This document shows, in pieces, positions 18,428-23,291 of a stretch of 64,000 bases of DNA. Every line of letters starts with the position of its first letter. The first letter of the stretch is position 1. The notes beneath the pieces were generated by a model that saw nothing but the letters and a program-made list of their open reading frames with translations, was not told the DNA's origin and made no database searches. The translations under genes were made by a program, and so were the position numbers. The stretch lies in assembly GCA_947586835.1 (NCBI GenBank), contig CANPXT010000001.1, positions 136,395-200,394 on the forward strand, written 5' to 3'. This DNA comes from an uncultured Alphaproteobacteria bacterium. Its GTDB lineage: Bacteria; Pseudomonadota; Alphaproteobacteria; CAAHEQ01; UBA3637.

Positions 18428-19183
18428 CTATTGTTGATATAATTCGTTTAAAATTGATTCAAACCCGTCATTATGCGTTGCTTTCCGAACGGTTACGATC
18501 GGCGCCGCCTCTTGCACGAAAGCCTTTGTCAGTGCGGGCGGAACAACTGTATCTTTTTCGCCGACGTAATGAATTTGCGGAATTTTTAAAAATTCAATTT
18601 GATAATCTTTTAAATTCAGTGATTCTTTTAAAAGCGTGTCATGATGATAAGCCGTCCATGCATCGGTATCCAACACACCGGCAACGGTAATCACTTTTAC
18701 CACATGCGGATTTTGAACAGCAATCAATCCGGCAATTTGCGCACCGCCCGAATAACCGATTAACACGACCTGATCGGTTTGCGCTTTTTTCATCAGCGCC
18801 GTTACGGCACTATTCATACTGCGTACAATTTGCGGTGAAAACCGACCGGTTGTCCAATCAACTTGCGAACAGGCACCCGCTTGCATATATTGGCAGGGAC
18901 GCCCCAAATAAGCCGTATTGGCATGCGGATCATCAGCTGCAACGTTGCGCCAAAACGCCTCTTGCGGCGTAGGGTTATCCGAAGGAGTTCCGTCGGCATG
19001 AAAAGCGGCACCATCGCCTTCAATATAAATGCGAACGGGTTCACCGGGGGCATTAATGCGATACCAGCTTGCCAAAATGTACGGCGGAGCCGGTTGCGTT
19101 TGAAATCGAAAATCCGTCAACGGATTTTGCGTGGCACAAGCCGTTAAAAAAAGAAACCCTAAAAGAGCAAATAATTTTTTCAT
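18428..19183 (-). CDS. Lipoprotein, alpha/beta-hydrolase fold
   Basis: Lipobox signal MKKLFALLGFLFLTAC and nucleophile elbow GYSGGAQ (GxSxG), with a C-terminal His-containing block (ATHNDGF). Confidence 0.6.
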   Translation of the reverse strand: MKKLFALLGFLFLTACATQNPLTDFRFQTQPAPPYILASWYRINAPGEPVRIYIEGDGAAFHADGTPSDNPTPQEAFWRNVAADDPHANTAYLGRPCQYMQAGACSQVDWTTGRFSPQIVRSMNSAVTALMKKAQTDQVVLIGYSGGAQIAGLIAVQNPHVVKVITVAGVLDTDAWTAYHHDTLLKESLNLKDYQIEFLKIPQIHYVGEKDTVVPPALTKAFVQEAAPIVTVRKATHNDGFESILNELYQQ

Positions 19184-19212
19184 AAACGTTAATATAACAA
19201 ATTCAAATCATC

Positions 19213-19262
19213 TTGACAAGAGTTATTTTAACTCTTACATAGAGTTTGTGAGATACGATAAT
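19213..19262 (+). promoter_or_regulatory. Candidate promoter(s) of the mini-ORF unit, with an embedded 7-bp inverted repeat
   Basis: Option one is TTGACA (19213-18), a 17-nt spacer and TACATA (19236-41). Option two is CTTACA (19234-39), a 17-nt spacer and GATAAT (19257-62). The inverted repeat AAGAGTT-n5-AACTCTT lies at 19218-19236. Confidence 0.4.
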
Positions 19263-19286
19263 ATGTTCGAAAGGAGGGGGAGCATT

Positions 19287-19319
19287 ATGCCGGGTTGCGG
19301 ATGTGGAACAAAGAAATAA
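19287..19319 (+). CDS. 10-codon mini-ORF MPGCGCGTKK (small peptide or leader; could instead be part of an sRNA)
   Basis: A strong SD (AAGGAGGGGGAG) lies 5-9 nt before the ATG. The stop codon sits in the loop of hairpin CAAAGAAA-taag-TTTCTTTG. A strong terminator lies 18 nt downstream. Confidence 0.3.
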   Translation: MPGCGCGTKK

Positions 19320-19331
19320 GTTTCTTTGCGT

Positions 19332-19362
19332 AAAAAAGCACTGCGAAAGCGGTGCTTTTTTC
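19332..19362 (+). terminator. Strong rho-independent terminator after the mini-ORF
   Basis: AGCACTGC-gaaa-GCGGTGCT forms 8 bp with a GAAA tetraloop, followed by TTTTTT and preceded by AAAAAA. Confidence 0.7.
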
Positions 19363-19481
19363 ATTGCCGTTTTTTTTATTGACATTTTTCTTTAAATATG
19401 TAATGTGGTGTTATACATGGAAAAGTATATGAAAAAATTACCACATCTTTTAAAGATGAGAAAAATGCTCATCAGCAAGAT

Positions 19482-19519
19482 ATACATACATACATACATA
19501 CATACATACATACATACAT
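19482..19519. repeat. Tetranucleotide microsatellite (ATAC)9 plus AT
   Basis: Nine perfect ATAC units were counted from 19482 to 19517, plus AT. The tract lies inside the 5' coding region of the first AlgJ-like paralog. The second paralog has only two units at the homologous site. Confidence 0.95.
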
Positions 19520-19526
19520 TCTTTTC

Positions 19527-20633
19527 TTGTTCATTTTTTTTCCTTTATGTGTTTTATTAACCATTGGTCTTACGCTTGATACGACACAAACAAAAAGCGT
19601 TCGTGAACAGCGCAATTTAGAAATATTTTCACCTTATTTTTGGACGCAAAGTGAACAACTTGAAAAATATATCTCCGATCATTTACCGTCCCGCTCAAAA
19701 TTAATTGATTTTTATTTCGAATCGGGTTTAGGGTACGATTTAGGTACTAAAGACCGCATTATCGGTAAAGAAAATTTTGTTTTCTATACTGCCTCATATC
19801 ATAGAAACATAAAACCGTTATCCATTTATCAAAATTCTTATTTACTTACGTCCGAACAAACTAATCTCCTTCAAAAAAACGTTCAAAAAATTGCTGGTTT
19901 TGCCAAAGAACATAACATTAAAGTCTATTTTATGATTCCGCCGGAAACCTCACGCGTTTATCACAAATGGATGCCTGATTATATTTTAAGAGAAAACAAT
20001 CCTTCCGTTTTGAAACAGGTTGAAACGGCACTTCAAGACATTGTGACCGTCGTTCCGATTGAAAAACACCTTATTTCTCAAGCACGCAGTCAATTTCCTC
20101 TCATTTATAAAACCGACACGCACTGGTCGGAAGACGGGGCATTTGAAGCCTACAAACTTTTAATGAAAGCCATACAAAAAGACTTCAAAGACATTCGCGC
20201 CGTTACACCCGATGATTATCATATTGAACGGACACAAAAAGTGTGGTCACCTTATCAATATGTGCAAAAACCGTATTTCTATGACGGAAACACTTATTTA
20301 AACGGACTTGATTACGGCAAAACGCAATATCAACATTATATTTATAAAGATAAAGCCGCCTTAAAAATTAACCGTGATGTACAGTTTCGTTTTTCGGATT
20401 ATGAAAAAGGTGCTCCGTATCGGGCTTATATCATCGGTGACAGCTTTTCTTACTATATGCTTCCGTTTTTAATGCCCACATTTTCCCATATCAGAATGCA
20501 CCGATTTAATGAAAACGGTGACACGGGCATTCGTTGGCAAGAGCGTGAAAAAGAATTGGCAGATGACAAAATTGATATTTTAATTTTAAGCATTTCCTCT
20601 CAAAAACTGGAAGAGTTAATGAGGTATTTTTAA
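19527..20633 (+). CDS. AlgJ/AlgX-like SGNH-type O-acetyltransferase, paralog 1 (body of gene; paralog-like ATG starts at 19417/19429 are out of frame across the ATAC tract)
   Basis: KTDTHWSEDGA (D-x-H) and IIGDSFSYY (catalytic Ser block), plus the N-terminal TM FIFFPLCVLLTIGLTL. It is about 85-90 percent identical to paralog 2. There is no SD before the TTG at 19527. Confidence 0.7.
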   Translation: MFIFFPLCVLLTIGLTLDTTQTKSVREQRNLEIFSPYFWTQSEQLEKYISDHLPSRSKLIDFYFESGLGYDLGTKDRIIGKENFVFYTASYHRNIKPLSIYQNSYLLTSEQTNLLQKNVQKIAGFAKEHNIKVYFMIPPETSRVYHKWMPDYILRENNPSVLKQVETALQDIVTVVPIEKHLISQARSQFPLIYKTDTHWSEDGAFEAYKLLMKAIQKDFKDIRAVTPDDYHIERTQKVWSPYQYVQKPYFYDGNTYLNGLDYGKTQYQHYIYKDKAALKINRDVQFRFSDYEKGAPYRAYIIGDSFSYYMLPFLMPTFSHIRMHRFNENGDTGIRWQEREKELADDKIDILILSISSQKLEELMRYF

Positions 20634-20648
20634 CGGGTTATTTTTTTA

Positions 20649-20676
20649 TTGACATTTTTTATTGAACAGATATAGT
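20649..20676 (+). promoter_or_regulatory. Promoter of AlgJ-like paralog 2 (duplicated with the gene)
   Basis: TTGACA, a 16-nt spacer and TATAGT. The same TTTTTTATTGACATTTTT block precedes paralog 1 at 19371-19389. Confidence 0.4.
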
Positions 20677-20699
20677 GAATGGTATGCATAGGAAACCAA

Positions 20700-21881
20700 A
20701 TGAAAAATTTATCCTCTTTATTAAAGCCGACAAAAATGCCCGTCAACAAAGGTATACATACGTTCCTTCTTTGCTTATTTATTCTTTTTCCTTTATGTGT
20801 TTTATTAACCATTGGTCTTACGCTTGATACGACACAAACAAAAAGCCTGCGCGAACGGCGCAATTTAGAAACTTTTCCCTTTCATTTTTGGGCACAGAGC
20901 AAAAAGCTTGAAAAATATATCTCCGATCATTTGCCGAAACGACCCGAACTGATTGATTTTTATTTTGAATCAGGTTTGGGACACGATTTAGGTACCCAAG
21001 ATCGCATTATCGGCAAAGAAAATTTTATTTTCTATACAACCTTATATTATAGAAACATAAGTCCGTTATTAATTTACCAAAATTCTTATTTATTCACGCC
21101 AAAACAAATCAGATTGCTTAAAAAAAATGTTCAAAAAATTGCCGATTTTGCCAAAGAGCATAATATTAAAGTTTATTTAATGATTTCACCCACAACCTCA
21201 CGCATTTATCACAAATGGATGCCTGATTATATTTTAAGAGAAAACAATCCTTCCGTTACAGAACAAGTTGAAACGGCAGTGCAAGATATAATAACCGTCG
21301 TTCCGATTGAAAAACATCTTATTTCCCAAGCACGCAGTCAATTTCCGTTAATTTACAAAACCGACACGCACTGGTCGGAAGACGGGGCGTTTGAAGCCTA
21401 TAAGCTGTTAATGAACGCCATACAAAAAGATTTTAAAGACATTCGCGCCGTCACACCCGATGATTATAATATCAAGCTGATAAAAAAAGTATGGGAATCT
21501 TATCAATATGCGCAAAAACCGTATTTTGATAACGGAAACACTTATTTAAAAGGGCTTGATTACGGCAAAACACAATACCGACATTATATTCATAAAGATA
21601 AAGCCAATTTAAAAATTAACCGTGATATACAGTTTCGGTTTTCGGATTATGAAAAAGGCGCTCCGTATCGGGCTTATATCATCGGGGATAGTTTTACTTA
21701 TTATATGCTTCCGTTTTTAATGCCCACATTTTCCCATATCAGAATGCACCGATTTAATGAAAACGGTGACACGGGCATTCGTTGGCAAGAGCGTGAAAAA
21801 GAATTGGCAGATGACAAAATTAATATTTTAATTTTAAGCATTTCCGATCAAAAACTGGAAGAATTAATGGGGTATTTTTAA
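20700..21881 (+). CDS. AlgJ/AlgX-like SGNH-type O-acetyltransferase, paralog 2 (intact)
   Basis: MKNLSSLLKPTKMPVNKGIHTFLLCLFILFPLCVLLTIGLTL TM anchor, with the same DTHW and GDSF motifs. The start at 20700 is chosen by analogy with MKKLPHLLK of paralog 1. Confidence 0.75.
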   Translation: MKNLSSLLKPTKMPVNKGIHTFLLCLFILFPLCVLLTIGLTLDTTQTKSLRERRNLETFPFHFWAQSKKLEKYISDHLPKRPELIDFYFESGLGHDLGTQDRIIGKENFIFYTTLYYRNISPLLIYQNSYLFTPKQIRLLKKNVQKIADFAKEHNIKVYLMISPTTSRIYHKWMPDYILRENNPSVTEQVETAVQDIITVVPIEKHLISQARSQFPLIYKTDTHWSEDGAFEAYKLLMNAIQKDFKDIRAVTPDDYNIKLIKKVWESYQYAQKPYFDNGNTYLKGLDYGKTQYRHYIHKDKANLKINRDIQFRFSDYEKGAPYRAYIIGDSFTYYMLPFLMPTFSHIRMHRFNENGDTGIRWQEREKELADDKINILILSISDQKLEELMGYF

Positions 21882-23291
21882 ATGATTTTTTCTTCATTCA
21901 CATTTCTTTGTTATTTTTTGCCGATTGTTGTGGGTATTTATTATATATTACCCAATCGCCTTCGCAATGTATTTCTGCTTTTGGCGTCGCTTATTTTTTA
22001 CGGTTGGGGACAACCTGCGCATTTGCTGGTGTTACTGTGTTTAATTGTCATCGGCTTTTATGCCGCCAAAGACATAACGCGTTACCCTCAAAAAGCCAAA
22101 ATGATATGTACGGCAAGCTGTTTTTACATTTTAGGTAATTTTTTCTTTTTTAAATACGGTGATTTTGTTCTGACTTCCTTCAACGATTTAACGAAAAAAA
22201 ATTTACCGTTGTTTTATATTACCCTGCCGCTCGGCATTTCGTTTTATGTATTTCAACTGCTCTCTTATGTGATTGATGTTTATCGTAAAAAAGCCAATGC
22301 GCAAAAAAGTTTTTCCGCGCTGGCGCTGTATGTCAGCAGTTTTCCGCAACTGATTGCGGGTCCGATTGTGCGTTACGATACCGTTGCCAAACAGTTAACA
22401 CATCGGCGGCACTCCATAGCAAAAGTTTATCAGGGGTTTCGACGCTTTTTAATCGGTCTTGCCAAAAAAGTGATTATTGCCGATATGTTGGGACATAGCG
22501 TTGATATGATTTTTGAAAGTTCCGTTTCTTCTTTAACACCTGCCATTGCGTGGCTCGGTGCATTTTTATATGCTTTACAAATTTATTTCGATTTTTCGGG
22601 CTATTCGGATATGGCCATCGGATTGGGGCGCATGTTCGGTTTTCGCTTTTTGGAAAACTTTAATTATCCCTATCTTTCCAAATCGATTTCCGAATTTTGG
22701 CGTCGGTGGCATATTTCGTTGTCAAGTTGGTTTAAATCATATGTATATATTCCCTTGGGCGGCAACCGACACGGCTTGTTACGAACCGTTTTCAATTTGG
22801 CAGTCGTGTTTTGCTTAACCGGATTTTGGCACGGTGCCGCGTGGACCATGGTTGTGTGGGGATTATGGCAAGGCTTTTTCGTGATTTTTGAAAAACTGTT
22901 AAAAGCAGCGGCGCATTCCCTGCATATCACACACATATCCGCCGTTTTTTATGCCGTTATCGGTCGGTGTTACGCTTTAATCGCATTACTGCTCGGCTGG
23001 GTTGTTTTTCGGGCAGAAACACTCTCGCAAGCTTATGATTACATTCGGTTAATGTTCGGACTTCTTCCCTATAAACAAGCGTTCGGCATTTCTTATTACA
23101 TACAAGGGTTATTGTGGCTCATTATTGTCTTTGCCGTCATTGCTTCAACGGGCGTGTTTAAATCTGTTTTACGGTATCGGGGATTTTGGACGCATTTTTT
23201 CATCAATCTCTGGCTGATTTTCCTGTTGTTCATTGTAATTGTTCTGTTAACGGGCAGCGGATACAGTGCCTTTATTTATTTTCGGTTTTAA
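21882..23291 (+). CDS. MBOAT family O-acyltransferase (AlgI/PatA/DltB-like)
   Basis: A polytopic 469-aa protein with the MBOAT signature FWRRWHISLSSWF...YIPLGGNR. Its ATG directly abuts the stop of paralog 2. Confidence 0.88.
   Translation: MIFSSFTFLCYFLPIVVGIYYILPNRLRNVFLLLASLIFYGWGQPAHLLVLLCLIVIGFYAAKDITRYPQKAKMICTASCFYILGNFFFFKYGDFVLTSFNDLTKKNLPLFYITLPLGISFYVFQLLSYVIDVYRKKANAQKSFSALALYVSSFPQLIAGPIVRYDTVAKQLTHRRHSIAKVYQGFRRFLIGLAKKVIIADMLGHSVDMIFESSVSSLTPAIAWLGAFLYALQIYFDFSGYSDMAIGLGRMFGFRFLENFNYPYLSKSISEFWRRWHISLSSWFKSYVYIPLGGNRHGLLRTVFNLAVVFCLTGFWHGAAWTMVVWGLWQGFFVIFEKLLKAAAHSLHITHISAVFYAVIGRCYALIALLLGWVVFRAETLSQAYDYIRLMFGLLPYKQAFGISYYIQGLLWLIIVFAVIASTGVFKSVLRYRGFWTHFFINLWLIFLLFIVIVLLTGSGYSAFIYFRF

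Follow-up and report, generated by a model that had tools for sequence, protein, structure and literature searches.

Between a minus-strand lipoprotein gene and a phase-variable AlgX/AlgJ-MBOAT acetylation locus of an uncultured alphaproteobacterium lies a 230-nt space with a ten-codon open reading frame (ORF) framed by expression signals, raising the question of whether so short a frame is a gene and, if so, what its product does. The locus was analysed within a window of 64,000 nt (GCA_947586835.1, contig CANPXT010000001.1, positions 136,395 to 200,394), and all coordinates below refer to this window. The first-pass annotation had read the space as an autonomous unit of roughly 100 nt encoding the peptide MPGCGCGTKK, with CGCG as a potential thiol or metal ligand, or alternatively as a Cys/Gly-sensing leader or a dual-function sRNA. 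Comparative evidence supports the first of these readings well, although no transcript, ribosome footprint or peptide has been seen, whereas the function of the peptide as a thiolate ligand or thiol buffer is inferred. All sequence elements listed in that annotation are present, with coordinates refined by one base:

18428-19183, minus strand: divergent neighbour, a lipoprotein with lipobox LTAC and a weak alpha/beta-hydrolase match (FSH1, 1.2e-6)
19213-19218, plus strand: -35 hexamer TTGACA
19218-19236, no strand assigned: perfect 19-nt palindrome AAGAGTTA-TTT-TAACTCTT in the 17-nt promoter spacer
19236-19241, plus strand: -10 hexamer TACATA, with a predicted transcription start near 19247-19250
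19270-19280, plus strand: Shine-Dalgarno sequence (SD) AAAGGAGGGGG, with GGAGG ending 9 nt before the ATG
19287-19319, plus strand: ORF of ten codons plus TAA, encoding MPGCGCGTKK
19309-19328, plus strand: hairpin CAAAGAAA-TAAG-TTTCTTTG, pairing the Thr-Lys-Lys codons with the first bases after the stop, with the stop codon in the loop
19332-19361, plus strand: intrinsic terminator AAAAAAGCACTGC-GAAA-GCGGTGCTTTTTT (A-run, stem GCACTGC/GCGGTGC, GAAA loop, T6), symmetric and thus possibly bidirectional

No plus-strand gene lies upstream, and the two hairpins form the centroid structure of the folded plus strand. A consensus promoter scan did not list the TTGACA-17-TACATA pair (8 of 12 matches, below its threshold of 9), and the terminator it listed is a neighbouring stem at 19349-19367. 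It did report a 10-of-12 minus-strand promoter for the lipoprotein gene, whose -35 (TTGTCA) overlaps the plus-strand -35 in the palindrome CTTGACAAG. An Rfam scan with permissive thresholds gave only sub-threshold matches to unrelated sRNAs, the best scoring 17-21 bits against thresholds of 47-115 and driven by the terminator.

Conservation of the ten-codon gene

The unit is single-copy in its 1.3-Mb genome. A BLASTN search with positions 19200-19400 against 40 related genomes retrieved it in 19 of 20 species of the same genus and in three further genera, with only the SD plus ORF (query 70-120) matching in the more distant ones. In the 18 distinct loci of this set, found by DNA similarity alone, all 8 third positions of codons 2-9 vary and none of the 16 first or second positions does (hypergeometric P = 1.4e-6). 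Pairwise identity is 1.00 at first and second positions, 0.64 at third positions, 0.57 in the 30 nt upstream and 0.40 in the 30 nt downstream. This is the signature of selection on the amino-acid sequence in this frame, ruling out a minus-strand 60-aa ORF (19203-19385) and a purely RNA-level or DNA-level element. Ten-codon ORFs are abundant by chance and gene callers do not report this one, but the confinement of substitutions to synonymous sites, the retained expression signals and the single, syntenic copy effectively refute a chance ORF in a divergent promoter region. We consider it very likely that this is a real, translated and selected gene.

A degenerate pattern for the peptide found 32 contigs among 185,579 species genomes, of which 31 are titled uncultured Alphaproteobacteria MAGs and one Pseudomonadota, with names pointing to ruminant, rabbit and other gut samples. 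A sequence-only profile of SD plus ORF, together with reading of weaker hits (one of which, within the order, was false) and of the region upstream of the lipoprotein ortholog in genomes without a hit, places the unit once per genome in 47 of 80 species genomes and 9 of 16 genera of the order. Outside the order, the profile found nothing credible in 401 genomes of the class, the weak hits being unrelated frames or the IscA C-terminus. Diverged members within the order include MPGCGCGTKKK, MPGCGCGCGTKKK, MPGCGCGSKGTKK, M(M)DGCGCGTKKK, MPGCGCGTKKGK, MGCGCGDKKKK, MPGCGCGCGTKKGGKPKETKK, MTGCGCGCGTKKGTKKGGK, MAKIKGCDCGCGTKKGPKK, MAGNKDCGCGCGTKKGGSKKGAK, MAENQDCGCGTKKGSKK and MILYADGCGCGSKGGKKGSAK. 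They are 10-23 aa long and keep the core C-G-C-G-(C-G)-T/S/D-K, whereas the N-terminus and the Lys/Gly tail vary.

The expression signals are retained as well. A perfect TTGACA lies 61-85 nt upstream of the ATG in 32 of 32 distinct loci, followed exactly 17 nt later by a TAnnTn hexamer in 28 of 32, and (G)AAAGGAGGGG is near-invariant in the alignment of 27 loci while the surrounding UTR varies. A hairpin plus T-run lies within 110 nt of the stop codon in 26 of 32 loci, and the stems have unrelated sequences, so the terminator is kept by function and not by descent. The locus is a complete, autonomous gene with a consensus sigma-70-type promoter, an inferred 5' UTR of roughly 40 nt, a very strong ribosome-binding site and its own terminator. 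In contrast, the spacer palindrome is not kept even in the closest relatives (AAGTGTTATTTTAATTCTT in the loci L002-L004), making a function as an operator doubtful, and a MerR-type operator is rejected because the spacer is also 17 nt rather than 19-20 nt.

The only constant neighbour is the divergent lipoprotein gene, which is adjacent in all loci of the order that were read. It is present in 80 of 80 genomes, including those without the mini-gene, so no dependence is shown, and as an uncharacterised hydrolase it says nothing about metals. The downstream gene differs between relatives and is convergent in most: in the locus L015 and similar loci, a MerR-like gene is followed by ihfA and fabH. 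The phase-variable acetylation locus follows the mini-gene only in the small clade of the window and has its own promoter. These findings do not support a Cys/Gly-sensing leader of the algJ-like gene or an sRNA tied to the phase-variable locus. More generally, a regulatory device in which translation rather than the peptide matters, including a strong promoter competing with the overlapping promoter of the lipoprotein gene, could draw on the overlapping -35 hexamers, the repeated Cys and Gly codons and the hairpin around the stop codon. This hairpin recurs with 6 or more pairs in 15 of 32 loci in shifted registers (mean 4.8 pairs against 1.75 in shuffles). However, all ten residues are conserved and not only the Cys/Gly codons, the UTR sequences are not conserved beyond the SD, no conserved antiterminator pairing is found as in attenuation leaders such as trpL, hisL and pheL, and the same peptide motif recurs in unrelated phyla with unrelated UTRs and neighbours. 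We regard this reading as very unlikely, although an added RNA-level role cannot be excluded.

Occurrence of the motif outside the order

Scans for CGCGCGTKK and MxCGCGTKK revealed stand-alone mini-ORFs with an SD and a terminator in Omnitrophota (M[SG]CGCGCGTKKKKKK[AS]KKK), Saccharibacteria (MACGCGCGTKKKKPKK), AT-rich gut MAGs labelled Rickettsiales (MACGCGCGTKKDAGTKKK and others), NC10/Methylomirabilota (MACGCGTKKAPEKSKPAAKPATKKK) and several unassigned metagenome contigs. The motif is also found at the C-terminus of 32-42-aa proteins of Bacteroidales and Tidjanibacter, at the N-terminus of a Cys-rich 78-aa Clostridium protein, behind a membrane anchor in one locus, and inside a 156-aa Photobacterium protein. 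Its distribution is patchy, with only 3 of 301 Omnitrophota genomes encoding it, and identity of a 7-9-residue motif across phyla may reflect homology, transfer or convergence. None of the mini-proteins of 20 aa or more matches a Pfam or NCBIfam family. Similarity searches of protein databases were limited by the short queries; the 42-aa Tidjanibacter relative found only itself, and the 32-aa Bacteroidales relative is on record only as 'hypothetical protein'. None of the four alphaproteobacterial sequences looked up by exact match is present in a collection of 15 billion proteins, and we found no paper describing the peptide. Genes of this size are rarely supported by anything beyond an open frame, and divergent intergenic regions that contain a terminator deserve a search for mini-genes.

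Three of these contexts are informative, and all concern iron, Fe-S clusters or oxygen stress. In Omnitrophota, MGCGCGCGTKKKKKKAKKK sits between an Rrf2 regulator and genes for rubredoxin, a peroxiredoxin/Pterin-4a fusion, an FNR-like reductase and a flavodiiron protein. In Saccharibacteria, the mini-gene follows a NifS-like cysteine desulfurase, NifU and a further ORF with a short N-terminal CxxC stretch without a Pfam match and an SDR-like remainder. In Photobacterium, DUF134 is followed by a Nitro_FeMo-Co (NifX/ORP-like) domain carrying CGCGCGTKK and then by NqrM, the maturation factor for the iron centre of Na+-NQR. These contexts come from only three lineages and were found with a motif-constrained pattern, and those in NC10, Bacteroidales and the 'Rickettsiales' MAGs are uninformative.

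Inferred function of the peptide

The peptide belongs to an undescribed family with the core x-C-G-C-G-(C-G)-[T/S/D]-K-[K/G] and a Lys/Gly/Pro-rich basic tail, 10-25 aa in all. Removal of Met before Pro would be expected to yield PGCGCGTKK. We favour, with moderate confidence, a cytoplasmic and abundant peptide acting through its two thiolates, held one flexible glycine apart. Several copies, or the peptide plus a partner protein, would ligate iron, an Fe-S cluster or another thiophilic metal such as Ni, Cu or Zn, or the peptide would serve as a gene-encoded low-molecular-weight thiol, with the lysine tail giving solubility and docking to acidic partners. Thiolate-based metal or redox chemistry is about as likely as not, and iron or an Fe-S cluster specifically is less likely than not. 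Two cysteines cannot hold a cluster alone.

A-type Fe-S carriers (PF01521) are absent from 80 of 80 genomes of the order and from 6 of 6 other carriers of small CGCGCGTKK proteins, but present in the controls and Photobacterium. Glutathione synthetase (GshB) is absent from the genus of the window and from the other carriers tested, while most other Alphaproteobacteria sampled have it. However, genera of the order that lack the mini-gene also lack PF01521 and GshB, so there is no complementary distribution, and both absences are common in anaerobes. If the peptide binds a metal or buffers thiols, it would show how bacteria without glutathione and A-type carriers fill that gap, and would provide a minimal natural metal-binding peptide accessible to chemical synthesis. 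A more speculative and rather unlikely possibility is that a Cys-Gly-repeat peptide of 10-25 residues, made in bulk by the ribosome, does the work that glutathione, phytochelatins or A-type carriers do elsewhere. It would then be one of the shortest stand-alone protein-coding genes known to be under purifying selection, and a natural counterpart of the Cys-Gly peptides used as proto-ferredoxin models.

Two other readings in which the peptide is the product appear unlikely. It could be a RiPP-like precursor whose Gly-Cys repeats, which resemble azole-forming cores such as that of microcin B17, are converted, for example to thiazol(in)es or thioether links, and the product exported. The Bacteroidales and Tidjanibacter versions look like a 25-33-aa leader followed by a C-terminal CGCGCGTKK, and there is a weak, non-significant resemblance to a putative sactipeptide family (TIGR04067, 15.9 bits against a cut-off of 45). 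In the Alphaproteobacteria, however, the core starts at residue 2-7, leaving no leader, and the tail is only 3-12 residues. No YcaO, radical-SAM, lanthionine enzyme, protease or exporter lies next to the gene in any locus read, although a maturase elsewhere in the genome is not excluded, and the conserved neighbours in other phyla are Fe-S and redox genes. Alternatively, a polycationic micro-protein could bind a polyanion (ribosome, RNA or DNA, polyphosphate or acidic membrane), with the cysteines serving only for zinc binding or disulfide cross-linking. The strongly basic tails (KKKKKKAKKK in Omnitrophota and KAPEKSKPAAKPATKKK in NC10), which resemble histone-H1-like or ribosomal-protein tails, the very strong expression signals and the retention in small, reduced genomes are in line with this. 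Yet the tail of the peptide studied here is only T-K-K, the invariant part is the Cys-Gly core and not the freely varying tail, and no ribosomal or nucleoid genes are nearby.

Tiny functional ORFs and Cys-rich metal-binding peptides are both known. Like mccA, the 7-codon microcin C precursor gene of E. coli plasmids, the mini-gene has its own SD and is followed at once by an intrinsic terminator, but MccA (MRTGNAN) has no Cys, must end in Asn and is followed by mccB-E for modification and export. Here, the peptide ends in Lys and the neighbours are the lipoprotein hydrolase, an Elm1-like protein and AlgX/MBOAT or MerR-like/ihfA genes. Metallothioneins (the 25-26-aa fungal copper metallothionein, SmtA/BmtA and MymT) share the small size and Cys-X-Cys motifs, and variants such as MDGCGCG and NKDCGCGCG seem to resemble the fungal N-terminus (GDCGCSG...). 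The Cys content of 20-23% is also high, but there are only 2-3 Cys per chain against 7-20, and variants of 20 aa or more match no Pfam or NCBIfam metallothionein model. Phytochelatins, of which PC2 appears to have the same Cys spacing, and glutathione, which also ligates Fe-S clusters, are likewise short, abundant thiol peptides, but they are made by enzymes, contain gamma-glutamyl bonds and lack a basic tail. The Cys-Gly-Cys unit is further reminiscent of the N2S2 nickel site of acetyl-CoA synthase. NqrM (PF04400) and NifX/NafY/ORP-type proteins are small accessory proteins handing over iron or metal clusters, but are larger, folded or membrane-anchored and have no sequence relation outside the motif. 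Finally, the C-G-C-G motif corresponds to the cluster-ligating C-terminus of IscA/SufA/ErpA, often followed by T/S/E (CGCGTSF in L099, one of the weak hits outside the order), although these are 110-aa HesB-fold proteins with a third, distant Cys ligand, of which the mini-protein is not a member.

Overlapping promoters and gene order around the mini-gene
The divergent lipoprotein gene facing the mini-gene appears to be leaderless; its promoter ends 7 nt before the start codon. The relevant elements lie within 19181-19219:
19219-19214, divergent from the mini-gene, -35 hexamer TTGTCA of the lipoprotein gene promoter, followed by a spacer of 17 nt
19196-19191, same direction, -10 element TG-TATATT
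19183, same direction, ATG of the lipoprotein gene
The -35 hexamer overlaps that of the mini-gene in the palindrome CTTGACAAG, so the two promoters probably cannot be occupied together. The same spacing is visible in relatives (loci L005 and L007). Across the order, most genomes encode 2-3 paralogues of this alpha/beta-hydrolase lipoprotein, and in genera g22, g25, and g5 the best ortholog follows another gene on the same strand instead of facing a mini-gene.

Comparison of 19365-23291 with the locus of a relative (L015) showed that in most relatives the mini-gene is followed by the convergent MerR-like/ihfA/fabH genes. In contrast, in the window's clade the AlgX/AlgJ-MBOAT locus with the (ATAC)n repeat is located there instead, followed by uppP, pgk, and gap. 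The acetylation module therefore sits at a rearranged or inserted position.

A-type carriers and glutathione synthetase in the order
This order of gut Alphaproteobacteria has no A-type Fe-S carrier (PF01521, 0 of 80 genomes), and almost none of the 44 genomes tested has a glutathione synthetase match, with weak ATP-grasp-level hits in four. Caulobacter and most other Alphaproteobacteria sampled have glutathione synthetase, and Caulobacter also has PF01521.

Genomic settings of the motif in other lineages
In Photobacterium (loci L151 and L146), the region from about 700 nt upstream to 310 nt downstream of the motif contains a conserved three-gene cluster, which encodes a DUF134 regulator, a Nitro_FeMo-Co (NifX/ORP-like) protein with an internal CGCGCGTKK and a hydrophobic tail, and an NqrM paralogue. 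The motif-bearing protein is kept in at least 11 Photobacterium species genomes, in two of which the neighbouring genes were read. In the Omnitrophota (loci L143, L168, and L205), the mini-gene, with its own hairpin, is part of an oxygen-stress-type operon, in which it follows Rrf2 and precedes genes for rubredoxin, a peroxiredoxin fused to a pterin-4a-carbinolamine-dehydratase domain, an FNR-like reductase, and a flavodiiron protein. The peroxiredoxin/Pterin_4a fusion is unusual.

Further settings were found on metagenome contigs. On L182 and L206, the motif occurs in two other contexts, one being a membrane-anchored 47-aa protein (MKMVKIILVVAVVAVALFLLKKSGICGCGCGTKKEEGKDVKKDSCCK) and the other a 185-aa Cys-rich protein with further CxC motifs (CRCNPCRCDP, GCGCSCS), which looks metallothionein-like. 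On L208 and L183, the mini-ORF MACGCGCGTKKGDSKKDSGKKEGKKK lies directly after nadB and nadC. Quinolinate synthase NadA of that pathway is an Fe-S enzyme. NadA was not seen on the contig.
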